In this document: piece by piece, positions 375 to 11,765 of the stretch
Numbering within the stretch: the first letter of the stretch is position 1
Layout: each line of letters opens with the position of its first letter
Assembly (NCBI GenBank): GCA_045805065.1
Contig: JBJMMA010000023.1
Span: 1-11,765, forward strand
Direction of reading: 5' to 3'
Length of the DNA stretch: 11,765 nt
Source of the DNA: Bdellovibrionia bacterium
GTDB lineage: Bacteria; Bdellovibrionota; UBA1018
Notes under the pieces: model-generated
Database searches by the model: none
Seen by the model: only the letters and a program-made list of their open reading frames with translations
Told to the model about the DNA's origin: nothing
Position numbers and translations under genes: made by a program

Positions 375-1940
375 ATGGATCAATTCGAAGAAAAAAAGTG
401 GTTTGTTTTTCTGGGCGATCATCACGAAGGTCCATTTTCAATGGCCGAGATGCTTTCCAAGGTTGAGCAAAAGGTTGTCACCCCATCGAGCTATGTTTGG
501 GCTGAGGGAATGACCGATTGGAAGCTCATGAAAGAGATCTCAGCTTTTGAAGGACTTGAAAAAAAGCCCGTGGCTTCAGGGAACAAAAGTGAACCTTCAA
601 ATGCCCCAAGCTCAAAGAGTAATGACGAGAGAAAAGAGCCAAGTGGCGCTCTCGATCTGGGTGCATTAAAAGCCGTGTCGCTTCCCTTGGATATGACTCC
701 GCTTAAAAAAGCGGAGCCTCCTGTGAACACCGCGCACGTTGAGAAATCCTGGAAGCGCCGCCGATTGATCCGCAGGACCCTTAAAACTGCAGCTGGACTT
801 GCCGTGGTGGGCGGAGTTGGAGCGGCCTATCAATCGGGTCTGTTGAACTCTTACATCGACACCGCCAAGGTCAGTGAAAAAGTGCAGGAAGTCAGCGGCG
901 CTGTCATGGAGCAGGCTCGCCCGCAGATGCTTTCTCTTGCTGAGAAGTACCCTGTGCTGAACAAGGTCATTTCACCTATCCCACATCTTAAAGATGTGAG
1001 CGCAGAAGATTATGAAAGGCTTCGAGCTGCAGCAAGCGAGCATCTGGACAAAGGTCCAAGTGTTGCCGTTGCTCAGTCCAACGAAGATCCTGCTCACCCG
1101 GTTTTTTATGTGAGCACGAACCTGCCGGATGGCGCCAAGTTTGATGTTTACCTCGAAGGCAAGAGCGACACTCTGGTTGGAAAGATTCATGCTTCCGCCA
1201 AGGTCAGCGTGGATGTGCAAAAGAATCTTGGAAAAACCGCTCCATTGGTTCTTCCGCAGAACGCAGCTCTTCCAATGGGCGAGTATCAGGTTTTTGCAAC
1301 CGAGAGCGATGGTCAGCCTGAAGCCATCACTTCGATCCTGAAGTCGCTTCCACCGCTGAACGCCGCCAAGACGGATCGCTTGCCAGCAGGCCTGAAGCTT
1401 CTGGCCCGCAGAACCTACTTCCTCGGTGGCGCAAAGGATGAAGCCTACAATCAAAAGCTTCGTGATTATCGCACCCAGCTTCAGCAAAAGGCTCGCATTG
1501 AGATCGCAGACCTGAAAGATCTAGGCTCTGTGTTTGAGAAGCAGATGCAGGCAACGATTCATCAGTTCAAGGCCATCCACAAAGGACGCGGAATTACCGC
1601 GGCCAAGAAAAAGGCCTGGTCGAATTTTCATTCGGAATGGATGAAAAACGAAATTGCCTGGCTGGACCGTTTCTCAAAGCTCACACCAGATGCCTTGCGG
1701 GATGACTATGTCTACGCTGAGCAATATGAACTTGCTCGACAAGCGGGGCAGGAGCTTCAGAAGCTTCACGATTTGCAGAACGATTACTTTGAGAATCGCC
1801 TGGACGAGCGCGGACTTGATATCCAGCTTGGAACGGCAACATCCGTGATGGAAAGCGCGTTTCTGACTTTTAAAACTAAAACCGAGCAGGCGGAGAAGGC
1901 TTCAACCAATCCTCCGAATCTGTCGGGAGGGGCGACATGA
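375..1940 (+). CDS. GYF_2 (DUF4339) domain single-pass membrane protein with a large helical extracytoplasmic region
   Basis: N-terminus WFVFLGDHHEGPFSMAEM...YVWAEGMTDWKLMKEI fits GYF_2 (W..GPF/S..VW..GM.DW). It is followed by a Ser/Pro/Lys linker, a basic patch KRRRLIRR and a hydrophobic segment AAGLAVVGGVGAAY; 521 aa. Confidence 0.8.
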   Translation: MDQFEEKKWFVFLGDHHEGPFSMAEMLSKVEQKVVTPSSYVWAEGMTDWKLMKEISAFEGLEKKPVASGNKSEPSNAPSSKSNDERKEPSGALDLGALKAVSLPLDMTPLKKAEPPVNTAHVEKSWKRRRLIRRTLKTAAGLAVVGGVGAAYQSGLLNSYIDTAKVSEKVQEVSGAVMEQARPQMLSLAEKYPVLNKVISPIPHLKDVSAEDYERLRAAASEHLDKGPSVAVAQSNEDPAHPVFYVSTNLPDGAKFDVYLEGKSDTLVGKIHASAKVSVDVQKNLGKTAPLVLPQNAALPMGEYQVFATESDGQPEAITSILKSLPPLNAAKTDRLPAGLKLLARRTYFLGGAKDEAYNQKLRDYRTQLQQKARIEIADLKDLGSVFEKQMQATIHQFKAIHKGRGITAAKKKAWSNFHSEWMKNEIAWLDRFSKLTPDALRDDYVYAEQYELARQAGQELQKLHDLQNDYFENRLDERGLDIQLGTATSVMESAFLTFKTKTEQAEKASTNPPNLSGGAT

Positions 1941-2350
1941 GCAAATCGACCAAGGCAGGACAGCAATCTGGAGCCGAACGCAGAAAATCCAAGCGGATGG
2001 ACATCCTGGATACCTTCTCACTTTTCGTAGTCGTGCCTGCCAAGGGCCCGATGCGTTTAAAAGTGCACGATATCAGCGACGCGGGAATCGGCTTTAACCT
2101 GGATATCGAGGAAGAGCAGGGCGCTTCAAGCTTTGAAGCCAAGGTTGGCGATTCGTTCGAGGTTCATCTTTACCTGAACCAATCCCTCTATCTGCCATTC
2201 TCCGTTTCGGTGCGCCGAATTGTTGACACTGAGGGAGTTCGCCGAATCGGCGCTGAATTCCAAGGCAAAGGCTCAAAGGGCCAGGTCGCTCTGACTTCCT
2301 TTGTGCACATGCTGGACGCTCTTGGCGAAGCAGCACGGATCGAAGGCTGA
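1937..2350 (+). CDS. Stand-alone PilZ domain protein (c-di-GMP receptor)
   Basis: RxxxR (ERRKSKR), DxSxxG (DISDAG) and terminal 'IGAEF' strand. ATGA overlap with the upstream gene; GGAGG upstream of the ATG. Confidence 0.88.
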   Translation: MSKSTKAGQQSGAERRKSKRMDILDTFSLFVVVPAKGPMRLKVHDISDAGIGFNLDIEEEQGASSFEAKVGDSFEVHLYLNQSLYLPFSVSVRRIVDTEGVRRIGAEFQGKGSKGQVALTSFVHMLDALGEAARIEG

Positions 2351-2383
2351 AACTTTTCAGTTAGCCGGCTGCGAAATCTGGCC

Positions 2384-2410
2384 TAAAGGTCCCCAACTTG
2401 CTTCCGATAA
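2384..2410 (+). promoter_or_regulatory. sigma28 (FliA)-type promoter for the second PilZ gene
   Basis: TAAA (2384-2387)-N15-TCCGATAA (2403-2410) versus consensus TAAA-N15-GCCGATAA: 11/12 matches with exact spacing. Intergenic, followed by GGAGG (2418-2422) and ATG 2430. Confidence 0.82.
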
Positions 2411-2429
2411 GACCCTTGGAGGAATTGAT

Positions 2430-2933
2430 ATGCCCCAAGGATCGGGAAATTTTGGTAAACGTTCTAATCAAAGCGGTGACAATGGTACGCCGCGCGTCGT
2501 CGACTTCAACCAAGTCCGTACGCAAAAACTCGAAGAAAAGCGCCGGACTACCGAGCGCATCTTCTTTAAACACCTTTTGAATGTCTATTCGGTAGTGAAT
2601 ACCGATCAGATGATGCCCATCGAGTTCATCGATGTGAGCGATGACGGTTGCTCGTTTCAGGTTCCATACGATCCTGAAAAGCCGTGGCCGACCACCACGA
2701 GCGATATCCCGCTTCGTGTGTATTTCAGCCAGGACACTTATCTTGAGATCCGCGTGACGGTTCAGAATTCTCGTCCATCGATCGAGAACAACCGCCGTTA
2801 CGTCCGCTACGGATGCACCGTGGACACGACCACGGCATCGTACGCAGCTTACCAGCAATTTGTCCGCTTCCTGAAGCTCTACTCAGAGCACGCCCATAAA
2901 GACATGGGCGACGTCAGTATCTTCTATCTTTAA
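2430..2933 (+). CDS. PilZ domain protein with N-terminal extension (167 aa)
   Basis: RxxxR (KRRTTER), DxSxxG (DVSDDG), 'YGCTV' strand. Start moved from 2301 to ATG 2430 because of the GGAGG RBS and the promoter just upstream. Confidence 0.82.
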   Translation: MPQGSGNFGKRSNQSGDNGTPRVVDFNQVRTQKLEEKRRTTERIFFKHLLNVYSVVNTDQMMPIEFIDVSDDGCSFQVPYDPEKPWPTTTSDIPLRVYFSQDTYLEIRVTVQNSRPSIENNRRYVRYGCTVDTTTASYAAYQQFVRFLKLYSEHAHKDMGDVSIFYL

Positions 2934-3206
2934 TTAAAGCTGTCCGGTTTCGCCGGCAACGGGTACGTTCACTTGAACGTTGCTAGTTGTCGGCGTATCC
3001 GCCGGAATCTCCTGAATATCATCATCATCTTCTTCTTCGATGACATCAGTTTTACCGGTTGAGGTCTTGCCAGCAGCAGGATGACTGCGAGCCGTGAGGG
3101 CGGCCAGAGCCGCGGCTTGAGACGAATATTGCTGGGTTTCCGCAGCATGTGCTGCAGAGATCGCCAAAACAAAGGTGCAAATCGAGACGAGAGTAAGGCT
3201 CTTCAT
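2934..3206 (-). CDS. Small secreted, acidic, low-complexity protein (90 aa)
   Basis: MKSLTLVSICTFVLAISAAHA-AET is a typical Sec signal peptide with an AxA site; acidic run EEEDDDD; AAAGGGA upstream of ATG 3206 (ORF-track start is TTG 3230). Confidence 0.65.
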   Translation of the reverse strand: MKSLTLVSICTFVLAISAAHAAETQQYSSQAAALAALTARSHPAAGKTSTGKTDVIEEEDDDDIQEIPADTPTTSNVQVNVPVAGETGQL

Positions 3207-3265
3207 GAAGAAAGCGATCCCTTTCTTCAATCGATGTTAACATGTGAAATGAAAAATGGAATCTG

Positions 3266-3296
3266 AAAAAGAGGCGGGTTTTAGCCCGCTTTTTTT
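3266..3296. terminator. Intrinsic terminator-like hairpin, stronger on the + strand, overlapping the stop of the 76-aa gene
   Basis: AAAAAGAG-GCGGG-TTTTAG-CCCGC-TTTTTTT: 7 T after the stem on +, CTCTTTTT after the stem on -. Confidence 0.55.
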
Positions 3297-3511
3297 CTAG
3301 TAATTGTTGAAGATTTTCCAGTGACTGGAGATTGGGATTCGAGCCATCGTGTCAGAAGCGACGCGGCTTTGGCGGGATCTTTTTCGACGAGTTTCGTAAT
3401 TTCATCGCGCAAACGAAAAAGCTCCGCCTTCGCGTCCTCGGGTTTTCCCGAAGCGTCAGGCCGGAGCTTCTTCACGTTATTATTGTTACTGTTGTTCTTG
3501 AAGCCTTTCAT
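3281..3511 (-). CDS. 76-aa protein carrying a FliF C-terminal (FliG-binding)-like helix-Pro-helix motif
   Basis: Residues 34-58 LRDEITKLVEKDPAKAASLLTRWLE resemble the FliF tail pattern (I/L)xx(L/M)xxx(D/N)PxxxAx(L/V)(L/I)xxW(L/M). ATGA overlap (3508-3511) with the upstream 70-aa gene. Confidence 0.7.
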   Translation of the reverse strand: MKGFKNNSNNNNVKKLRPDASGKPEDAKAELFRLRDEITKLVEKDPAKAASLLTRWLESQSPVTGKSSTITRKKAG

Positions 3512-3720
3512 GAATTTCCAATGCTTGGGCCCTGCAGAGCAGGTGCGGCACCTTGCTCAAGCTGCAGGCTATCAATTTCGTCCTGGGAGATGGAGCCAAC
3601 AAACACTTCTTCATCGATCAACGAGAATGCGAACCAGCGATTACCCATCTTTTGATAAAGGACTTCGACGGTTTGATCGTTGGACTTACGGATTTCGTTT
3701 TTCTTAGAGTTGTTCGCCAT
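3508..3720 (-). CDS. 70-aa hypothetical protein with a small predicted beta-sheet core
   Basis: Strong RBS GGAGG (3726-3730, minus strand), promoter upstream, protein-like core VEVLYQKMGNRWFAFSLIDEEVFVGSI, coupled to the next gene. Confidence 0.75.
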   Translation of the reverse strand: MANNSKKNEIRKSNDQTVEVLYQKMGNRWFAFSLIDEEVFVGSISQDEIDSLQLEQGAAPALQGPSIGNS

Positions 3721-3763
3721 GGCACCCTCCCTGGTTTGTTGGCTGAAAGTTGTTACATGAGAC

Positions 3764-3790
3764 CTATCGGCGCCCCGCGCCTTTCCTAAA
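3764..3790 (-). promoter_or_regulatory. sigma28 (FliA)-type promoter for the two-microprotein operon
   Basis: Minus strand TTTA (3790-3787)-N15-GCCGATAG (3771-3764). The -10 box is 7/8 to GCCGATAA, the -35 box is weaker, and the spacing is exact; it lies 43 nt upstream of ATG 3720. Confidence 0.72.
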
Positions 3791-3849
3791 CGAGAAAGTT
3801 TTGCCCTGTTTTGTCATGCTAGCCCGCCGTTTCAAAATGGGCGCAGCGC

Positions 3850-3878
3850 TGGACGGGAAGGGTTCGCGCGGATAAGAT
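3850..3878 (+). promoter_or_regulatory. Putative sigma70 promoter giving a leaderless transcript
   Basis: TGGACG (3850-3855)-N17-TAAGAT (3873-3878)-N6-ATG 3885; no clear Shine-Dalgarno. Confidence 0.45.
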
Positions 3879-3884
3879 GGCGAC

Positions 3885-4628
3885 ATGAAAAGTTTATCTC
3901 TCATGGCTTTCGCTCTGATCCTCTCAGTTCATACGGCCAGCCCGGCAAATGCTGCCGAGTCAAAACCAAAGTACGGACCGATGGCAAACGTGCTGTCGCA
4001 ATCGCATGATTATTTCAAAAGCGCACCCGCTCCGGACTTCTGGGCGCTCATCCCGTATTATGCCGCTCAAATGGACGAGTCAGCTTGCTCGGTTGCCTCG
4101 GTGACCATGATCACGAACGGCGCACGCGTCGGAAAAAAGCTGACCGCGGACGATGAGCTGGTCACTCAGCAAGCAATCGCCGAAAAAGTTCTTCATAAAG
4201 CCTGGCACAAGGGAATGATGAAAAAGGCGATGGGTTATTCAACAAACCTGGATGAGCTGGGCGAGATTGCGCGCGAAGCATTCGAGAAGTACGGAATCCA
4301 CGTCAAATCGGTTGAGGTCGTTCACGCTGATGCGATCGATGAGAAGACCAAGGCAAAGCTTCATGAGGCATTGGTTGAGAACGAGAAGTCAGCGCACGAT
4401 TTCATTCTCCTCAACTTCAATCAGAAGGTTTTCACCGGTGATGCTGAAGTAGGTCACATCTCTCCGATTGGCGCCTATGATGAGAAGAACCACAAAGTCC
4501 TCGTCATGGATCCTGATCGCAAATGGTATGAGCCTTACTGGGTCTCCGAAGAAACTCTTCTTATGGGAATGGCGACCAAGGACTCATCGACACAGCGCAA
4601 CCGCGGCTTTGTCTGGATCAAGTTCTAA
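3885..4628 (+). CDS. Phytochelatin synthase family (papain-fold) protein with signal peptide
   Basis: Oxyanion Gln and catalytic Cys in QMDESACSVAS, His in GHISPIGAYD, Asp in VLVMDPDR, 'PYWVS' and terminal 'RGFV'; N-terminal Sec signal ending ANA-AES. Confidence 0.88.
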   Translation: MKSLSLMAFALILSVHTASPANAAESKPKYGPMANVLSQSHDYFKSAPAPDFWALIPYYAAQMDESACSVASVTMITNGARVGKKLTADDELVTQQAIAEKVLHKAWHKGMMKKAMGYSTNLDELGEIAREAFEKYGIHVKSVEVVHADAIDEKTKAKLHEALVENEKSAHDFILLNFNQKVFTGDAEVGHISPIGAYDEKNHKVLVMDPDRKWYEPYWVSEETLLMGMATKDSSTQRNRGFVWIKF

Positions 4629-4658
4629 GCTTGCTCTGATCTGCTGCCGTTATTGCCA

Positions 4659-5105
4659 CTATTGAACGATGATCGTACCGTTGATCGTGTGATTGTAAAC
4701 GTCCTCGAACTCATAGCTTCCAGGATCTGTCAGAGTCACGACGTGAGCGCGGACAGTGTTCAATGAACCTGGATCACTGAGCGGGCTTGTTGGAAATGTC
4801 GGCTGAGCCGTCGACTGAATCTGATGAAACTCCGTTGTATTGAGGTACCAGAAAATAATCTGGGTCCCTGCGCTAACGGTGCATGTGAGGCTCACGGGTG
4901 GCTGCACAATGCCAGGCGCTTCCTGGCAGCCGCAGAGGTTTTGAATAAAATTGTCATAAATCACAAGCTGAGCTTTGGTCGGAGTGCAATTCCCTGAGGC
5001 GCTGCCGCTGGTACCCGACACGCTGGCCTGCTCTTCACAAGAAAGCGTAGTTAAACCAAGGGTTACGGCCAAAATCAGGGGGGTTAAAATCCTAAAGCTT
5101 CGCAT
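4659..5105 (-). CDS. Lipoprotein with cupredoxin-like fold
   Basis: Signal peptide II with lipobox (TLS-C); 'TVSAGTQIIF', 'HQIQS' and C-terminal 'PGSYEF...GTIIV' follow the cupredoxin strand pattern. Confidence 0.62.
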   Translation of the reverse strand: MRSFRILTPLILAVTLGLTTLSCEEQASVSGTSGSASGNCTPTKAQLVIYDNFIQNLCGCQEAPGIVQPPVSLTCTVSAGTQIIFWYLNTTEFHQIQSTAQPTFPTSPLSDPGSLNTVRAHVVTLTDPGSYEFEDVYNHTINGTIIVQ

Positions 5106-5216
5106 CTGCTTGTAATCTAACCCGAATGCTTACCCGCTTGTACTTAAATTTTTTGCTCAACAGGGCCTTGCGCTGTGCGGCTATTTCATGTATTTCATGG
5201 TCCACCTTTCACGAGT

Positions 5217-5294
5217 GGACCCGTAGCTCAGTTGGATTAGAGCGTCAGACTACGGATCTGAAGGTCCCAGGTTCGAACCCTGGCGGGTCCGCCA
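5217..5294 (+). tRNA. tRNA-Arg (anticodon ACG)
   Basis: Acceptor stem GGACCCG/CGGGTCC + G-CCA; D arm TAGCTCAGTTGGATTAGAGC; anticodon arm TCAGA-CTACGGA-TCTGA; T arm CCAGG-TTCGAAC-CCTGG. Confidence 0.97.
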
Positions 5295-5312
5295 TTTCAA
5301 GGTTAAGCATCA

Positions 5313-5358
5313 AAAATAAAAAAGCCGGCACGCGCAAGCAAGCCGGCTTTTTTATTTT
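5313..5358. terminator. Bidirectional intrinsic terminator between the tRNA and the M14 peptidase gene
   Basis: Perfect 17-bp inverted repeat AAAATAAAAAAGCCGGC (5313-5329) / GCCGGCTTTTTTATTTT (5342-5358) with a 12-nt loop and U-tracts on both strands. Confidence 0.88.
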
Positions 5359-5370
5359 CTACAGGTCCAC

Positions 5371-6264
5371 CTAAGTTCTACCCAAGATAAAATCCAGGCC
5401 GCCTTTAATCGCCATCATCTGGGCATTTCTGCAGATCGCATCGTTCGCCTTAGGGCTGTCAGGATAAACTTCAGTAGTCGTCGTATACTTCGCTCTCGAG
5501 ATCCCAGCGCAAAGCGAGAGTTCCTTCAATGAATAATTGATGACGCCTTCTTGCTCGATCTCAACACCAATGATTTTCCCCTCAGCGTCAGGAGGTGCAA
5601 TGTGGGTCACCTTCCTCACCGAATCGATGACTGCCTTCTGAAATTCGGGCACTGGATTTTCAGTATCCCCCACAGCGTAAAAGCCGTCCGGGATTTCACT
5701 CCACGGGTCCTCTTCGGTCCCATCTCGCAACGCTTTCTCCGGACGAAAAATGGAATTGTCCGTATCCGTAGTTTCATGCAGGTCAAAGTGCACATAGATA
5801 TCGCTGAGAAAGGACGATACAGCGCTCAGAAACAGACGGCACTCCTCGGCTGGACTGTTCAGAATGAAACTGCGGTTTGGATCGATCGCTTGAGGGTTCC
5901 AGCGATTGATCGTCTCATAAGCCCAAGGGCTGATAGCGGGAGCGCAAATGAAGTTGAATGCCTCACTGTAATGCGAGGCCTCCTGCTCCATGAATGCAAG
6001 CGCCCCATGGACGCCGCTGGTTTCATAACCGTGAACGCCTCCCGTAATGAGGACCGTTTTCTTATTGGGAGAGAAGGTTTCTGATTGAACCAGGAAAAGC
6101 GGGTATTTTTCTGGGTTAAGAGAGAGTGCGCCGTACTGCGTGACTTTAAATTTAGCGCCAAGCTTCTGAATGGGAGTCACTACTTCTTCAAGGTAGGAGC
6201 GCTGGATCTTTTGTTTGTTAAACCATTTTCTTTTGTCGTCATCGGACCAAGGCCTTCGGTTCAT
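5371..6264 (-). CDS. M14 family zinc metallocarboxypeptidase / succinylglutamate desuccinylase-like protein
   Basis: HxxE in GGVHGYETSG, 'NRWN..AIDPNRSF', third ligand in DLHET, catalytic Glu in TTTEVYP. Start placed at ATG 6264 (MNRRPW...) rather than TTG 6342. Confidence 0.87.
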   Translation of the reverse strand: MNRRPWSDDDKRKWFNKQKIQRSYLEEVVTPIQKLGAKFKVTQYGALSLNPEKYPLFLVQSETFSPNKKTVLITGGVHGYETSGVHGALAFMEQEASHYSEAFNFICAPAISPWAYETINRWNPQAIDPNRSFILNSPAEECRLFLSAVSSFLSDIYVHFDLHETTDTDNSIFRPEKALRDGTEEDPWSEIPDGFYAVGDTENPVPEFQKAVIDSVRKVTHIAPPDAEGKIIGVEIEQEGVINYSLKELSLCAGISRAKYTTTTEVYPDSPKANDAICRNAQMMAIKGGLDFILGRT

Positions 6265-6439
6265 GGGAATGATGTTACACCGGTTTTTCGATACAAGCAG
6301 GTCTAAACTCGTCCAAGCGGCATACTCAGCAGCCGGTTTCAAGAGTTGAGGTGAGGTACGTGATTTGCTCGGCTCAAAATATTACAGAATAAATGAAGCA
6401 ATCTAAAACGCAGCTGCCCGTGCTGCGCAGGAGGAAGGG

Positions 6440-7222
6440 ATGAAGCTTAATCAGAAAAGGCTCGCAAAACGAAAGATTGCCGTCTTAGTTGCCGACGGAT
6501 TCGAGATGGCTGAATATATGGTCCCGGTGAATGCCCTTCGGATGGCGGGAGCTGACGTCACTGTCGTTTCGCTCCGGTCCGGCCGGATCCGAGGCGTCAA
6601 CTTGCATGAGCCTGCCCATAAGATCCGTGCTGATCTCACAGTCGATCAAGCGAATGAAGCGGACTACGATGCCTTGTTCGTCCCTGGTGGATTCATCAAT
6701 CCCGATCTGTTGCGACAATCGGCTCAGGTTCGCGGTTTTGTGAGCGATTTTGAGCGCTCCAAAAAGCCAATCGCGACGCTTTGTCACGGTCCATGGGTGC
6801 TCGCATCGGCCGGGCTTTCGAGCGGACGCACTCTGACCTCCTGGCCTGGCACGCGTGACGACATGGTCAACGCAGGTGCGACGTGGTTGGATCAGGCCGT
6901 TGTGCGCGACGGAAATTGGGTGACCAGCCGCGGGCCTCAGGACTTCGCGGATTTCGTTCCCGCCATGATCGATTTGTTCACTCGATCGACTTTCGCACCA
7001 GAAAACCTCGGTGATAATGAGAGAGCGGTATCGTCGCCACAGCGAGACGAACCCCCTAGCGTCGTGTTGTCGGCCTTCAAGTGGATGCCGCGGCCTTCGC
7101 TCCGAGGATTTGCGCTCGGTCTGTTGGTTGGAGGATTGACCATTGCTAGCCGCCGCGTTGCTTCGCGACAGGCGCAGTCAAGAAACGAGGCGCAGCGGGA
7201 CGACTTCGCGATCGCGGTGTGA
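6440..7222 (+). CDS. PfpI/DJ-1 family type 1 glutamine amidotransferase-like protein with C-terminal hydrophobic extension
   Basis: DGFExxE, YDALFVPGG..NPD.LR, nucleophile elbow LCHGPW, VVRDGNWVTSRGPQD; RBS GGAGGA upstream. Confidence 0.92.
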   Translation: MKLNQKRLAKRKIAVLVADGFEMAEYMVPVNALRMAGADVTVVSLRSGRIRGVNLHEPAHKIRADLTVDQANEADYDALFVPGGFINPDLLRQSAQVRGFVSDFERSKKPIATLCHGPWVLASAGLSSGRTLTSWPGTRDDMVNAGATWLDQAVVRDGNWVTSRGPQDFADFVPAMIDLFTRSTFAPENLGDNERAVSSPQRDEPPSVVLSAFKWMPRPSLRGFALGLLVGGLTIASRRVASRQAQSRNEAQRDDFAIAV

Positions 7223-7345
7223 CGCTCGCAGGTAAAGTAAGTGGTGATTGTTTTTTTTAAGTCGCTCATTCAGTGATCAAGAAATTTTTCGTATTCCACT
7301 GCATAGCAGCGACGAGATGGCCTCTGGCCTGCACTGCTTTTAAGG

Positions 7346-8575
7346 GTGGCCAATCGACTAGCCGATGTTGCTCGGCGTTTCAGCGAAAATAAAGAAACAA
7401 TCCTCCAGGAGTGGGAACGCGCTGTATTAGAGGAGATACCCGAAGCAAGGGATAAGGGAAAAAAAGCGATCAGGAACAGCATTCCCGCGCTCTTGGAGAA
7501 AATCGCGCGCACGCTTTCGAAAGAGTCTCCTAAAGATACCGCTGATTTTGAGTCCGAGCTTTCAATGGCGAAGGAGCACGGTCAGCAGAGAGCAAGGTTC
7601 ACGGATTACTCGATGGAGCAGGTGATTCACGAATACCAGCTTCTGAGAAAAGTCATATTACGAGTCCTGGAGAAAAAAAAGCCTCTCAATTCTCAAGATC
7701 GTGATGTGATCATTGACGCCGTCGCGCTTGGCGAGCGGATTGCCGCATCTGAGTTCCATAACCTTCATCTCAAATCAATGCGCGATTTAAGTGAACGCAC
7801 CGAACAGAGGGATGTCGCTCAAAAGCAGAGGGATGATTCCAGAATCGAAGTACGCGATCTCATCTCAGAACGAGGAATGCGAGAGAGCTTTGTTTCGGGC
7901 TTGGCGCATGACTTGAGGACGCCGATCACCGCAGCTCGAATGAACCTGGAGCTTCTAATTCGAAGAAGAAATGATGTGGGGGCCTTGGAGCTCCATACAG
8001 GTCGAGCCTTGGGAGAGCTTTCGCGTCTTGAGGGCATGATTCAGGATCTTCTGGATGCAAATCGAATCCGAGCTGGCGTGAAGCTGCCCATCAAGCTGGC
8101 TGGCTTTGATCTCGTCGAAGAAGTTCAACATACTCTTGATTCTTTGGCTGCGGTGCACGGGGATCGGTTCGAACTTGAGGCAGAGGAAAGGGTTGTGGGC
8201 TATTGGGATCGAAAAGGAATCAGGCGTATCGTTGAAAATCTCTGCATCAATGCCATCAAGTATGGCGATAAAACCACTGAGGTCACCGTTTGCATAAAAC
8301 CAAACTGGGACGAAAGAAGGGTGGAGCTCTCTATCCATAACTGGGGACCTGTCATCGATAGTGAATCCCAGAAGACGGTTTTCGAGCAGTTCCGAAGAGC
8401 GAGCTTGAAAGACATCCATAGCATTCACGGATGGGGAATCGGTCTGGCCGTAGTTCGTGGAATGGCGGAATCACACGGCGGTCATGTTGAAGTTCAAAGC
8501 AGTCCGGAGGAAGGGACTACTTTCAAGCTCCTCCTGCCAATCGACGCTCGAGAGCGGTTGCAGCGCGCGAGTTAA
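7346..8575 (+). CDS. Soluble sensor histidine kinase (N-terminal RsbRD_N-like helical domain, HisKA, HATPase_c)
   Basis: H-box AHDLRTPI, N-box NLCINAIKYG, G1-like HNWGPVI, F-box VFEQF, G2 GWGIGLAVV..HGG. N-terminal ILQEW...EHGQQRA...EYQLLR pattern; no TM segment. GTG start is uncertain. Confidence 0.9.
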   Translation: MANRLADVARRFSENKETILQEWERAVLEEIPEARDKGKKAIRNSIPALLEKIARTLSKESPKDTADFESELSMAKEHGQQRARFTDYSMEQVIHEYQLLRKVILRVLEKKKPLNSQDRDVIIDAVALGERIAASEFHNLHLKSMRDLSERTEQRDVAQKQRDDSRIEVRDLISERGMRESFVSGLAHDLRTPITAARMNLELLIRRRNDVGALELHTGRALGELSRLEGMIQDLLDANRIRAGVKLPIKLAGFDLVEEVQHTLDSLAAVHGDRFELEAEERVVGYWDRKGIRRIVENLCINAIKYGDKTTEVTVCIKPNWDERRVELSIHNWGPVIDSESQKTVFEQFRRASLKDIHSIHGWGIGLAVVRGMAESHGGHVEVQSSPEEGTTFKLLLPIDARERLQRAS

Positions 8576-8632: not shown

Positions 8633-8677
8633 TTGACATTTCCTGATAGTTCTATTATTCTAGAAATATGGAAATGT
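8633..8677 (+). promoter_or_regulatory. ars operon sigma70 promoter with overlapping palindromic operator
   Basis: TTGACA (8633-8638)-N17-TATTCT (8656-8661)-N6-ATG 8668. Inverted repeats ACATTTCC (8636-8643)/GGAAATGT (8670-8677) and inner TTCTA (8650-8654)/TAGAA (8661-8665). Confidence 0.72.
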
Positions 8678-9000
8678 ATGAAGCCACTGAAGCTTTCTCT
8701 TCGCTCTCTCAGGAAACCCGTCTCAAGGTTTTCAAGCTTCTGATTGAGTACGGCAGAGAAGGCGCCGTTCCAGGAAAACTGGCTGAGGAGCTCAAGATTC
8801 CGGACAATACGCTGTCTTTTCATCTCTCGCATATGAACAAGGCAGGGCTGATTACTTCAAAGAAAAACGGCCGCTCCATCACTTATTACGCGAACACGGA
8901 TCTCATCGAAGACCTGATCGATTACCTGCAGGCAAACTGTTGTGCTCGAGAAACCAAGTCCAAAACCAAGAGCAAATGCTCTCCGGAAAGGAAGTGCTAG
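8668..9000 (+). CDS. arsR: ArsR/SmtB family repressor with C-terminal Cys ligands
   Basis: LSQETRLKVFKLL, HTH 'NTLSFHL..M.KAGLI...GRSITY', C-terminal NCC plus two further Cys; first gene of the ars cluster. Confidence 0.92.
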   Translation: MEMYEATEAFSSLSQETRLKVFKLLIEYGREGAVPGKLAEELKIPDNTLSFHLSHMNKAGLITSKKNGRSITYYANTDLIEDLIDYLQANCCARETKSKTKSKCSPERKC

Positions 9001-9001
9001 T

Positions 9002-9439
9002 ATGAAACGCTTTCATATTCATGTCGGAGTTAAGAACCTGGAGAAATCGGTCCAATTCTATTCCACTCTCTTTGGACAAAAGCCAGCGAAGCTCAAGTCA
9101 GACTATGCAAAGTGGATGCTTGAGGACCCCAAACTCAACTTTGCCATCTCCACTCGCACGAACGAAGAAGGTGTTGACCACCTGGGCATTCAAGTGGACG
9201 CAGACTCCGAACTTGCCGAAATTACAGAACGCCTGAAAAACGCAGACCTTGGTGTTTACGATGAAGGTGAGACAACCTGCTGCTATGCGGAGTCCAAAAA
9301 GGCCTGGGTACAGGACCCTTCAGGCGTGGCCTGGGAAGCGTATCGCACAATGGCAGACGCTGAACTCTTCAAAGGCATGGCAGATGAAGACAAATCAGAC
9401 TGCTGTGTGCCTGATGGCTCTGAACAAAACTGCTGCTGA
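9002..9439 (+). CDS. arsI: ArsI/CadI family VOC metalloenzyme (putative C-As lyase)
   Basis: MKRFHIH, YAKWMLEDP.LNFAIS, DHLGIQV, vicinal Cys in TTCCYA, KAWVQDP.G..WE. Start moved to ATG 9002, 1 nt after the arsR stop. Confidence 0.85.
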   Translation: MKRFHIHVGVKNLEKSVQFYSTLFGQKPAKLKSDYAKWMLEDPKLNFAISTRTNEEGVDHLGIQVDADSELAEITERLKNADLGVYDEGETTCCYAESKKAWVQDPSGVAWEAYRTMADAELFKGMADEDKSDCCVPDGSEQNCC

Positions 9440-9451
9440 TCGGATCATAAA

Positions 9452-10531
9452 ATGGAGAACAGCCTTGTCAGCTCAGTCGTTTGTCCGCGTAGGGAACTGT
9501 CGTTCCTGGATCGCTACCTGACGTTATGGATCTTTCTCGCCATGGCGGGGGGCGTATTGCTGGGTTACATCGCACCAGGCCTGGTCCCAGCACTGAACCA
9601 GATGAGCGTTGGCACCACTTCGATCCCAATCGCAGTGGGCCTGATCCTCATGATGTATCCGCCTCTGGCGAAAGTGAAATACGAGGATCTGGGTCAAGTC
9701 TTCCGCAATAAGCGTGTCTTGGCTCTCTCTCTTCTCCAGAACTGGATCATGGGTCCAGTTCTGATGTTTGGATTAGCCGTGCTCCTGTTGCGCGACCGTC
9801 CTGAGTACATGATCGGGCTCATCCTGATCGGGCTTGCTCGCTGTATCGCCATGGTCATCGTGTGGAATGAGCTTGCCGAAGGAAATAGCGAATACTGCGC
9901 AGGCCTGGTTGCCTTCAACTCCATCTTTCAGATTCTATTTTTCCCTCTTTATGCTTGGTTCTTCATGACCAAGCTTCCCGCTTGGCTTGGGCTTCAAGGA
10001 TCTGAAGTCAATATCAGTATGGGAGAGATCGCGCGGTCAGTGTTTGTGTATCTAGGGATCCCATTTTTTGCAGGATTTCTTACGCGCCTGATTCTACGGA
10101 AGGCAAAAGGCGATGCATGGTATCGTGAGAACTTTCTTCCAAAGATCAGCCCCATTACGCTCACTGCGTTGCTTTTTACGATTGTTTTGATGTTCTCCAT
10201 TAAGGGCGAACAAATCGTACAATTGCCTTTGGATGTTTTGAGAATCACCCTTCCTTTGGTGATCTACTTTGGCGTGATGTTCTTGCTCTCTTTCTTCCTG
10301 AGCAAGAAGGCTGGAGCGGATTACCCTCAAGCAGCAACGCTTTCTTTCACCGCAGCCTCGAACAACTTTGAGCTTGCGATTGCAGTCGCGATTGCAACGT
10401 TTGGTATTCACCACGGCGCAGCTTTTGCCGCCGTGATTGGTCCACTGGTTGAGGTCCCAGCACTCATTGCTCTGGTGCAACTGGCCTTGAGATTCAAAGC
10501 TAAGTTCTTTGACAGGAAATCTCTCGCGTGA
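9452..10531 (+). CDS. acr3: Acr3 family arsenite efflux transporter
   Basis: [55 protein letters not shown]; multiple hydrophobic helices. Confidence 0.96.
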
Positions 10532-10971
10532 AAAAGATCCTCTTCATGTGCGTTGCCAATTCCGCTCGTAGTCAGTTAGCAGAAGGGCTCGCACGTCACT
10601 TGTTCGGTGATCAGATTGAGGTACAGAGTGCTGGTTCGAAGCCTACGAAGCCAAATCCCTTTGCCATCCAAGTCATGAAAGAAATCGGAATTGATATCTC
10701 ACAGCATTACTCAAAGACGTATGACGAACTTCCTCCTCGGTTCCTGGTGGACTTGGACTGCGTCATTACTCTTTGCGCCGAAGAGATATGTCCCGTGATC
10801 GTTTCTAAAGCAAAAAAGATCCATTGGCCGTTCCCTGATCCCGCAGGCCATGGCGGTTGCGATGAGCTGCAGCTTCAGCGCTTTCGAGAAACACGTGATG
10901 CGATCACAGCAAAGCTGAAAGCTTCTATTTTAGTGAATGGGGAAGCGCAGAGCGGCTATTCCAACGGGTGA
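10528..10971 (+). CDS. arsC: Arsenate reductase, LMW-PTP (thioredoxin-type) fold
   Basis: P-loop [38 protein letters not shown] overlap with acr3. Confidence 0.92.
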
Positions 10972-11600
10972 TCGTAGCCCTCAAGATCCTTCAGCTGACG
11001 TATGCCGTTCTTCAGAACAGCACGCAGGGTTTCCGAGATCGTTGCGGCCTCGAGGATTTTCTGGTCCTCGTACACGCCAAAACCAAACATGGTGGCGATG
11101 GCATAGGAGAGAGCAAGAGGTTCGTCGTCCAGCGCGGCTAGAGCGCCAAGATCGACCGGAAGTTCAGCTTTTACGAGCTCAAGCAGTTTGCGCACGAGCC
11201 CAAGAAGGGGATCCAAAAAGACTCCGGTTGAACCTGAGACATCATCCACGGGAGCCCCATGGGCTCGCACTGCTCCTGACAAGAAGGGCTCCTTATGAAT
11301 GATCCCTTCGAGAAAAATCCGTTCGACTCCCACGATTTTTACCCGAAAGCCCTCTTCGACTTCAGAGATACTCTCGATAATCCCGCGCGTACCTACACGA
11401 TACAATTGCGAAGTGTCGCTGATCCGCTCGGTCGAATAGTCGCGCTGAGCAAAAACGGCAATCGACTGATCGTCCCTTTGCAATGCGACTCTTGAGGCTT
11501 CCACTGTTTCAGCGCGACCGATGATGACAGACACGGCTAATTCAGGGAACAAAACCGAGCCTCGGAGTGGAAGAATTGGCATCAGCAGAATGTCATTCAT
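10956..11600 (-). CDS. Isolated Lon protease N-terminal substrate-binding domain protein (possibly a truncated lon)
   Basis: MPILPLRGSVLFP...IGR, VFAQRD, LYRVGTRGII, VKIVGVERI, QKILEA..I.E.L match the Lon N-domain; no Walker A or Ser-Lys protease domain follows. Confidence 0.8.
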   Translation of the reverse strand: MNDILLMPILPLRGSVLFPELAVSVIIGRAETVEASRVALQRDDQSIAVFAQRDYSTERISDTSQLYRVGTRGIIESISEVEEGFRVKIVGVERIFLEGIIHKEPFLSGAVRAHGAPVDDVSGSTGVFLDPLLGLVRKLLELVKAELPVDLGALAALDDEPLALSYAIATMFGFGVYEDQKILEAATISETLRAVLKNGIRQLKDLEGYDHPLE

Positions 11601-11765
11601 GCGTATTCCATTGCTGCACTTAAAATACCGCTCTAAGCAGCTTGAATGGGATAATTGCCAAAGCGAGCATCCAATTACTGGCGCCTGAAGTGCAGAGACA
11701 TAAGGCTCAAATGGTTCTCAGAGCAGGTGCATTAACGAATTCGAGTGGCATTTTAACTCCAGAGC

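Follow-up and report, generated by a model that had tools for sequence, protein, structure and literature searches.

The DNA stretch analysed here (the window) comprises 11,765 nucleotides (nt) of contig JBJMMA010000023.1 from a Bdellovibrionia bacterium (GenBank assembly GCA_045805065.1), which belongs to the Bdellovibrionota and to the predatory Bdellovibrio-like bacteria. Its minus strand carries two small overlapping open reading frames (ORFs), here named ProtA and ProtB, placed between a sigma28-type promoter and a predicted intrinsic terminator. Judged by its sequence, ProtB is a paralogue, encoded as a separate protein, of the final ~40 residues of FliF, the flagellar MS-ring protein. 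In the order of transcription, the cassette presents the following features:

3791-3805, minus strand: conserved GGCAAAA..TTC.C box abutting the -35 element, found in 12 of 17 related loci
3764-3790, minus strand: sigma28-type promoter made of TTTAG (3790-3786), a 15-nt spacer and CCGATAG (3770-3764), recognised in the sequence and conserved in related loci
3725-3730, minus strand: strong Shine-Dalgarno motif GGAGGG for ProtA, recognised in the sequence
3508-3720, minus strand: ProtA, the 70-amino-acid partner ORF, its stop codon overlapping the start codon of ProtB (from conservation, alignment A5, an AlphaFold2 model and substitution rates)
3281-3511, minus strand: ProtB, the 76-amino-acid stand-alone paralogue of the FliF C-terminal tail (from the ORF, its homologues, substitution rates and an AlphaFold2 model)
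3323-3445, minus strand: core of ProtB aligning to FliF tails, residues ~23-63, with K-x-E, hydrophobic heptads, DP, KAA and W (from hhalign, BLASTP and a FliF-tail profile)
3264-3289, minus strand: predicted intrinsic terminator with a GCGGG stem, a 6-nt loop and a T-rich tail, overlapping the ProtB stop (from a terminator scan)

An earlier note, made from the letters of the window, had described the minus-strand ORF at 3281-3511 as a 76-residue mimic of the FliG-binding end of FliF, and its account of the anatomy of the protein is correct. Residues 34-58, encoded at 3338-3412, read LRDEITKLVEKDPAKAASLLTRWLE as it had reported. In the AlphaFold2 model, obtained with 37 homologues, a helix-Asp-Pro-helix unit spanning residues 24-60 is the sole ordered part of the protein: two helices (24-44 and 46-60) are separated by a break at D45/P46, with a predicted local distance difference test score (pLDDT) of 89-94 across residues 31-60 and below 75 in the flanks. 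No Pfam family was matched at E<=1, which leaves ProtB with neither the periplasmic ring-building domains nor a PilZ domain, and the absence of any hydrophobic segment leaves it without the two transmembrane helices, the model showing two amphipathic helices only. The proposed lack of membrane-spanning and ring-forming parts is thus borne out. A Foldseek search of the PDB with the model returned nothing at E<=0.001.

A word-indexed search recovered nine close homologues of ProtB with 67-92% identity. With a profile built from these nine, HMMER was run exhaustively over 1.84 billion representatives and gave 36 ProtB-like proteins at E<=1e-3, all of them 41-103 residues long. The relatives are labelled as Bacteriovoracaceae, Bacteriovoracia and Bdellovibrionia metagenome-assembled genomes, and in the records looked up no functional name is attached to members of the family, apart from the automatic name 'M-ring protein FliF/YscJ' given in one public source to a member of 60 residues. 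The mean column identity of the 37-sequence alignment is 26% across families. W56, A49 and A50 are nevertheless invariant in it, and P46, K48, L41 and L53 are kept in at least 90% of the sequences, so that the two residues singled out in the earlier note, P46 and W56, both belong to the conserved set. A basic K-K-A-G/A terminus closes most members.

Scanning genome contigs yielded two ProtB-like loci, of which L006 is a true relative. The other, L007 (Pseudoroseomonas), was rejected as a chance match located inside a 643-residue non-flagellar ORF and devoid of the tryptophan. Compared with the L006 orthologue, ProtB shows a ratio of non-synonymous to synonymous substitution rates (dN/dS) of 0.12, a value drawn from one pair whose dS of 1.3 is near saturation. 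The pattern of conservation identifies ProtB as a real gene under purifying selection.

In the flagellar motor, two helices of the FliF tail co-fold with the FliG N-domain and fasten the C-ring to the MS-ring. The likeness of ProtB to this tail, first suggested by a pattern of residues, proved to be one of homology. Residues 24-58 of ProtB align by BLASTP with residues 512-544 of the 561-residue FliF of the same genome, at its C-terminal end (28.9 bits, E 1e-5). When the whole genome was searched in six frames with a ProtB profile, ProtB itself and the FliF tail were the only matches at E<0.01 (FliF E 0.003, among 42 scored candidates). In the opposite direction, a profile made from 14 FliF tails returned FliF and ProtB only (ProtB E 2e-6; 27 candidates), and this profile matches the window at 3320-3433. 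Comparing the 37 ProtB sequences (alignment A2) with the 14 FliF tails (alignment A3) by hhalign gave a probability of 98.2% and an E-value of 4.3e-14 over 41 columns, an E-value that is flattered because the 14 tails were chosen from ProtB-profile matches; the reciprocal genome searches are free of this bias.

At the level of residues, six of the seven invariant FliF-tail columns are identical in ProtB, namely K23/K28, E25/E30, P41/P46, K43/K48, A44/A49 and A45/A50 (FliF-tail column/ProtB residue). The seventh, P13, falls outside the aligned core, and the hydrophobic positions of the two sets agree in kind. The survey was extended to a sample of 301 genomes across the phylum, some of them incomplete, where an absence is to be read as 'not found'. 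The ProtB profile matched 134 of these genomes. Among the matches listed, nearly all are either open frames of ~550-590 residues, corresponding to FliF, or small ORFs, and FliF tails were matched in more than 90 genomes. Such sequence comparisons indicate homology between ProtB and the FliG-binding tail at the C-terminus of this phylum's FliF.

The genome also holds a complete fliE-fliF-fliG cluster on another contig, encoding a FliF of 561 residues (PF08345, E 1.1e-39) and a FliG of 337 residues. The separate full-length fliF that the earlier note had looked to is therefore present, and ProtB is not a split or decayed fliF. In the neighbourhood of ProtB, a Pfam scan of 11 ORFs of 375-8575 assigned no member to a flagellar family, in keeping with the observation that neither fliE nor fliG lies close by; the region 8668-11765 was inspected by eye only.

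ProtB does not stand alone at its locus, a point that the earlier note had missed. ProtA lies directly upstream, and the four bases ATGA are common to the end of ProtA and the start of ProtB. The co-directional overlap with ProtA, together with the sigma28-type promoter and the terminator, leads us to regard the two genes as an operon. All of the 17 related loci examined have ProtA immediately in front of ProtB. A further 33 genomes carry both matches on one contig, and in each of them the spacing is within ~300 nt and ProtB is the downstream gene; in another genome, G239, the small-ORF match is on a contig other than that of ProtA and may instead be the tail of a FliF located at a contig end. 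Where the junction was read (14 loci), 12 show an overlap of 1-14 nt, one has a 35-nt gap and one an unclear start. The overlap of the ORFs suggests that ProtA and ProtB would be made in roughly equal amounts.

Alignment A5 reveals a conserved ProtA core around V-L-Y-Q...W-x-A-F-S, and the AlphaFold2 model (core pLDDT ~90) predicts a three-strand beta-meander (strands 20-25, 28-35 and 38-44) followed by a helix (46-56). Its dN/dS is 0.115. ProtA has no Pfam match, its profile found no paralogue in its own genome and no match among PDB sequences, and its model gave nothing at E<=0.001 in a Foldseek search of the PDB. In the ESM Atlas, the best score for ProtA was 0.76 (DUF1902), below the level of a lead.

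The sigma28-type promoter had been recognised in the earlier note, and its type is indeed conserved; it precedes ProtA, with ProtB as the second gene behind it. Within 130 nt upstream of ProtA, a sigma28-type motif occurs in 12 of the 17 loci of the window's order (shuffle mean 0.41 loci) and in 12 of the 16 loci of families f21 and f12 (shuffle mean 0.55 loci), so that it spans families that have diverged deeply. The textbook sigma28 consensus combines a TAAA-like -35 element with a CCGATA-like -10 element at a spacing of about 15 nt. In the Halobacteriovorax-type loci, the sequence upstream of ProtA runs TAAAGTTT, ~11 nt, CGATA, which we take to be close to this consensus. In the window's genome, the same promoter layout precedes two of seven flagellin genes (of eight Flagellin_N matches), and two FliA/WhiG-type sigma genes are present. 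Transcription of the cassette is thus putatively FliA-dependent, as far as promoter sequence can tell. A genome-wide scan with the promoter pattern was set aside: its strict form gave 5 sites, its loose form 148, of which 52 had a downstream ORF, including 2 flagellins, and no sigma28 regulon was defined because the loose scan is too noisy.

The box at 3791-3805 may extend the -35 element or serve as the site of a regulator. A similar sequence, GGCAAGG...CGTTTAAG, stands ahead of one flagellin gene of the genome. At the other end of the cassette, the scan of 2900-3950 found one terminator site against a shuffle mean of 1.5, which is not above chance alone; the call at the end of ProtB is made because of its position at the stop codon and not on scan statistics.

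The two halves of the cassette differ in distribution. ProtA occurs in 148 of the 301 sampled genomes, in families f1-f13, f15, f16 and f21. ProtB follows ProtA in 34 genomes of the window's order, the window's own included, in 7 of 7 f21 and 2 of 2 f12 loci of a first set, and in 9 of another 20 loci of f21; the sequence pattern used found no ProtA in the remaining 11 of these 20. Halobacteriovorax marinus SJ (f21) holds the pair as the hypothetical proteins BMS_0413 and BMS_0412, and in two Halobacteriovorax-type loci of f21 (L050 and L059) a flagellin gene directly follows the cassette. Three loci read in f15 contain ProtA without any ProtB-like ORF. On this phyletic pattern, ProtA appears as the older and more widespread half of the cassette.

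FliF was found in 256 of the 301 genomes. It is present in all families with ProtB, in every sampled genome of f1-f10 and f12 and in 64 of 67 genomes of f21: ProtB was seen only in FliF-carrying families. Conversely, ProtA was found in none of the genomes of f17 (0/34), f20 (0/35), f22 (0/14) and f24 (0/18), where FliF was found in 30, 35, 13 and 14 genomes, respectively. Because several FliF-bearing families are devoid of ProtA, the cassette is an accessory of some flagellated lineages and not a core component.

Homology to the FliF tail designates FliG as the candidate partner of ProtB. According to two structural studies (PMC6079021, PMC8956890), which refer to the FliF tail/FliG N-domain structures 5TDY and 5WUJ, the solved FliF tails form two hinged helices embedded in the FliG N-domain. 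The first of them further reports that the FliG N-domain changes its fold upon FliF-tail binding and seems to have evolved within the complex (PMC6079021). Only one ORF of the window's genome has a FliG_N domain. A complex predicted between FliG 1-105 and ProtB 20-76 received a score of 0.55, the best of three controls having 0.00, in a setting where a similar complex has been solved. Separate runs shared at least 89% of contacts, and partner pLDDT was at least 65. In calibration, 116 of 157 solved complexes attained the score mark, as did 2 of 215 mismatched pairs; the alignments used here (12 rows for FliG, 37 for ProtB) were custom-made, so these counts hold roughly. With scores of 0.60 or below, the mark was reached by just 18 of the 157 solved complexes and by both of the passing mismatches. 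The prediction lends weak support to a binding of ProtB to the FliG N-domain.

Two other genes of the genome encode FliG-like parts. One is a stand-alone protein of 146 residues matching FliG_C at E 1.7e-7 (L104:1468-1908, contig C105), a possible alternative partner of ProtB. The other is a membrane protein of at least 647 residues with a FliG_C domain, followed by a cNMP-binding protein and then by a MotA-like protein (L103:100-3324, contig C237); a FliF-tail-like stretch is situated just past its transmembrane helix.

We tentatively favour, as a possibility rather than a probability, a model in which ProtB competes for the FliF groove on undocked FliG. ProtA and ProtB would be produced together late in flagellar assembly, and the two helices of ProtB would enter the FliF-binding groove of FliG molecules that have not yet docked. 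The ensuing rivalry between ProtB and the MS-rings for free FliG would limit or time the assembly of further C-rings once a flagellum is complete, and ProtA would bind ProtB and govern its availability. What we observe is the homology, the operon, the promoter type and the distribution; that ProtB binds FliG, when it is made, which way it acts and what ProtA does are our inferences.

A number of points weigh against this model. Whether ProtB would act negatively or positively is purely our supposition. The FliF-FliG interface is co-folded with a 1:1 stoichiometry, so a soluble mimic could reach undocked FliG only, and the model presupposes both a pool of free FliG and a sufficient abundance of ProtB. 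Since a similar FliF-FliG complex has been solved, the score of the predicted complex may reflect memory and not binding. Searching PDB sequences, the narrow ProtB profile (A1) found no FliF among solved chains at E<=10. The diverse profile (A2) met two 'Flagellar M-ring protein' entries without significance (E 0.28 and 0.30), over their extreme C-termini (last 23-26 residues). As a control, the FliF-tail profile of the phylum itself likewise finds no solved FliF chain, and the silence of the PDB is for this reason not evidence against homology.

The tryptophan is also less constant than the 37-sequence alignment implies. All 22 FliF tails read in f21 carry M or I in place of the tryptophan of the window's order, and the same position in 11 f21 ProtBs is occupied by W in four, M in five, L in one and F in one. 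Its replacement in 7 of 11 Halobacteriovorax-type ProtBs implies that it is not universally required. The parallel between the FliF tails and ProtBs of f21 is suggestive, with the relatedness of these sequences as a confounding factor. Finally, some f15 genomes and G003 (f16) have ProtA and no detectable FliF; two genomes of this kind are G002 and G003. The occurrence of ProtA without ProtB in f15, or without FliF in G002 and G003, implies that the older half of the cassette is not strictly flagellar, and an older non-flagellar role for ProtA may be envisaged from this distribution.

A more specific version of the competition model would make the cassette a late-flagellar checkpoint. After completion of the hook-basal body and the onset of sigma28 activity, ProtB would cap free FliG N-domains so that no C-ring is nucleated on spare MS-rings, with ProtA, and possibly the adjacent c-di-GMP-binding PilZ protein, acting as a gate. 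We hold this version to be somewhat unlikely. If true, it would offer a means for a predator to remain at one polar flagellum, or to lose the C-ring when the flagellum is discarded on prey entry.

The same groove could serve the opposite purpose. ProtB might be a FliG chaperone or assembly factor that holds newly made FliG folded and soluble until its handover to FliF, with ProtA aiding loading or release. The homology and the complex score of 0.55 speak for this explanation as they do for competition, the refolding of the FliG N-domain on the FliF tail, described in PMC6079021, means that a surrogate tail could stabilise FliG, and the overlapping ORFs hint at a 1:1 pairing of ProtA with ProtB, of the kind common in chaperone-like systems. 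However, a late sigma28-type promoter is a poor fit for the earliest step of motor assembly, and the FliF-bearing families f17, f20, f22 and f24, which lack ProtA, imply that such a factor is not needed for assembly in general. We thus consider a chaperone function unlikely.

Another explanation turns to the genes around the cassette. Beside the operon, the window carries:

1937-2350, plus strand: a second PilZ-domain gene (Pfam PilZ, E 1.3e-7), also present in L006 and L028
2430-2933, plus strand: the neighbouring PilZ-domain gene, 167 residues (Pfam PilZ, E 1.2e-4, 22.8 bits against a cut-off of 22.5)
2934-3230, minus strand: an ORF of 98 residues that begins like a signal peptide and is very acidic in its middle, just past the terminator

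The PilZ ORF as listed (2301-2933) begins at TTG 2301 and overlaps the preceding PilZ gene; its start is likely 2430, because relatives start at a methionine equivalent to that position. Both of the PilZ genes that the earlier note had placed near ProtB are real according to Pfam, and it is their link to the cassette that weakens: the family of 2430-2933 is present in 244 of 301 genomes, families without the cassette included, and in f21 it lies far from the cassette. As the phyletic profile of PilZ does not track the cassette, we give it little weight as a functional module, and the neighbourhood may represent synteny inherited within one order. In two of the three f15 loci, a PilZ-like gene directly follows ProtA (L053:1919-2723 and L055:1842-2889).

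Such neighbours raise the prospect that FliF-like helices were re-used for ProtA itself, for the neighbouring PilZ protein or for a FliG-like paralogue, and not for the flagellar FliG. The constant adjacency of ProtA in the 17 loci and the 33 other genomes, and its greater age and spread relative to ProtB, would fit such a re-use. So would the proximity of a PilZ gene of the 2430-2933 family, which in 16 of 17 loci is no more than 800 nt away from ProtA, the PilZ-like gene that comes directly after ProtA in L053 and L055, where ProtB is missing, and the existence in the genome of the 146-residue FliG_C-like protein and of the larger FliG_C membrane protein beside a MotA-like gene. Yet the invariant FliF-tail residues kept in ProtB point most simply to the same partner, the FliG_N domain occurs in FliG alone, and the widespread PilZ family is hundreds of kilobases from the cassette in Halobacteriovorax-type genomes. 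On balance, we assign re-use for another partner a low probability. The idea that ProtB is a functionless, decaying or split remnant of a fliF duplication, to which its restriction to the FliF tail and a terminus resembling those of FliFs of the same order (a basic residue, then small residues and A or G) would lend some appeal, is effectively refuted by the conservation data, namely core positions that stay invariant across divergent families and the low dN/dS, beside a conserved promoter, partner gene and terminator of its own and an intact fliF elsewhere in the genome.

Other genes accompany the cassette in the window. A small secreted-looking ORF comparable to that at 2934-3230 follows ProtB in most related loci, including L006 and L008. 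Divergent from the ProtA promoter region, 3885-4628 (plus strand) encodes a secreted phytochelatin-synthase-like or C39-like peptidase (E 2.3e-26), a neighbour also found in L006, L012, L015 and L019. The ORF at 4659-5105 (minus strand; 148 residues) has a signal- or lipoprotein-like N-terminus, a C-G-C-x-E motif and weak Ig/cupredoxin matches, and it is retained at the same place beside the cassette in L006, L009, L010, L011, L022, L023 and L028. Further on, a tRNA-Arg (ACG) is located at 5217-5294 (plus strand), and the 82-residue ORF listed across it is spurious. Inspected by eye, 8668-10971 (plus strand) resembles an arsenic-resistance cluster with an ArsR-like regulator, a glyoxalase-like protein, an ACR3-type permease and an ArsC of the low-molecular-weight phosphatase type.

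The joint between the FliF tail and FliG is the first and best-conserved link in the building of the flagellar motor. Not this joint but transcription, the placement of rings or rotation is what the regulators found in the literature act upon. Full-text literature searches retrieved no account of a protein mimicking the FliF tail or serving as a decoy for FliG, in agreement with the earlier note, which knew of no such regulator, and nothing relevant on BMS_0412 or BMS_0413. A natural soluble tail with a partner and a late promoter would represent a new control of motor assembly or number and, if the proposal is true, the first regulator found to work through mimicry of the MS-ring/C-ring joint. 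ProtB would also serve as a ready-made probe or blocker of FliG docking. Two small proteins and one domain would suffice for a direct test of the claim, and Halobacteriovorax marinus SJ, whose complete genome is published, carries the pair BMS_0412/0413.

Among known systems, the closest is the FliF C-terminal tail itself. ProtB shares with it a homologous sequence, two helices that AlphaFold2 hinges at a proline, the invariant K, E, P, K, A and A, and the hydrophobic pattern. It differs in being a separate protein of 76 residues, predicted to be soluble, where the FliF tail is the end of a membrane-anchored ring protein. It further differs by its own start codon, late-type promoter, terminator and obligatory small partner gene, and by its restriction to part of one phylum.

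A flagellar clutch and a type of flagellar brake offer functional parallels. EpsE, the clutch of Bacillus subtilis, is a glycosyltransferase-family protein acting on the assembled motor. Like ProtB in our proposal, it is a non-core protein proposed to disengage or disable the rotor via FliG, whereas the two are not known to be related in sequence, ProtB being without any Pfam match. The PilZ brakes of the YcgR type are described in a recent preprint as effectors of cyclic di-GMP on the flagellar rotor and stator (bioRxiv 10.1101/2025.08.21.671521). With these brakes ProtB would have in common the action of an accessory protein on the FliG part of the rotor, and PilZ genes adjoin it. It has, however, no PilZ domain and resembles the structural partner of FliG in place of a signalling domain, and its target would be the FliG N-domain and assembly instead of rotation.

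Finally, natural FliF-FliG fusion proteins are reported in a published study (PMC4768692). They constitute another evolutionary rearrangement of the interface between the FliF tail and FliG, and the FliG_C-bearing membrane protein of the window's own genome (L103) resembles them. In the fusions the two partners are joined in one chain, whereas in ProtB the tail has been released as a free protein.

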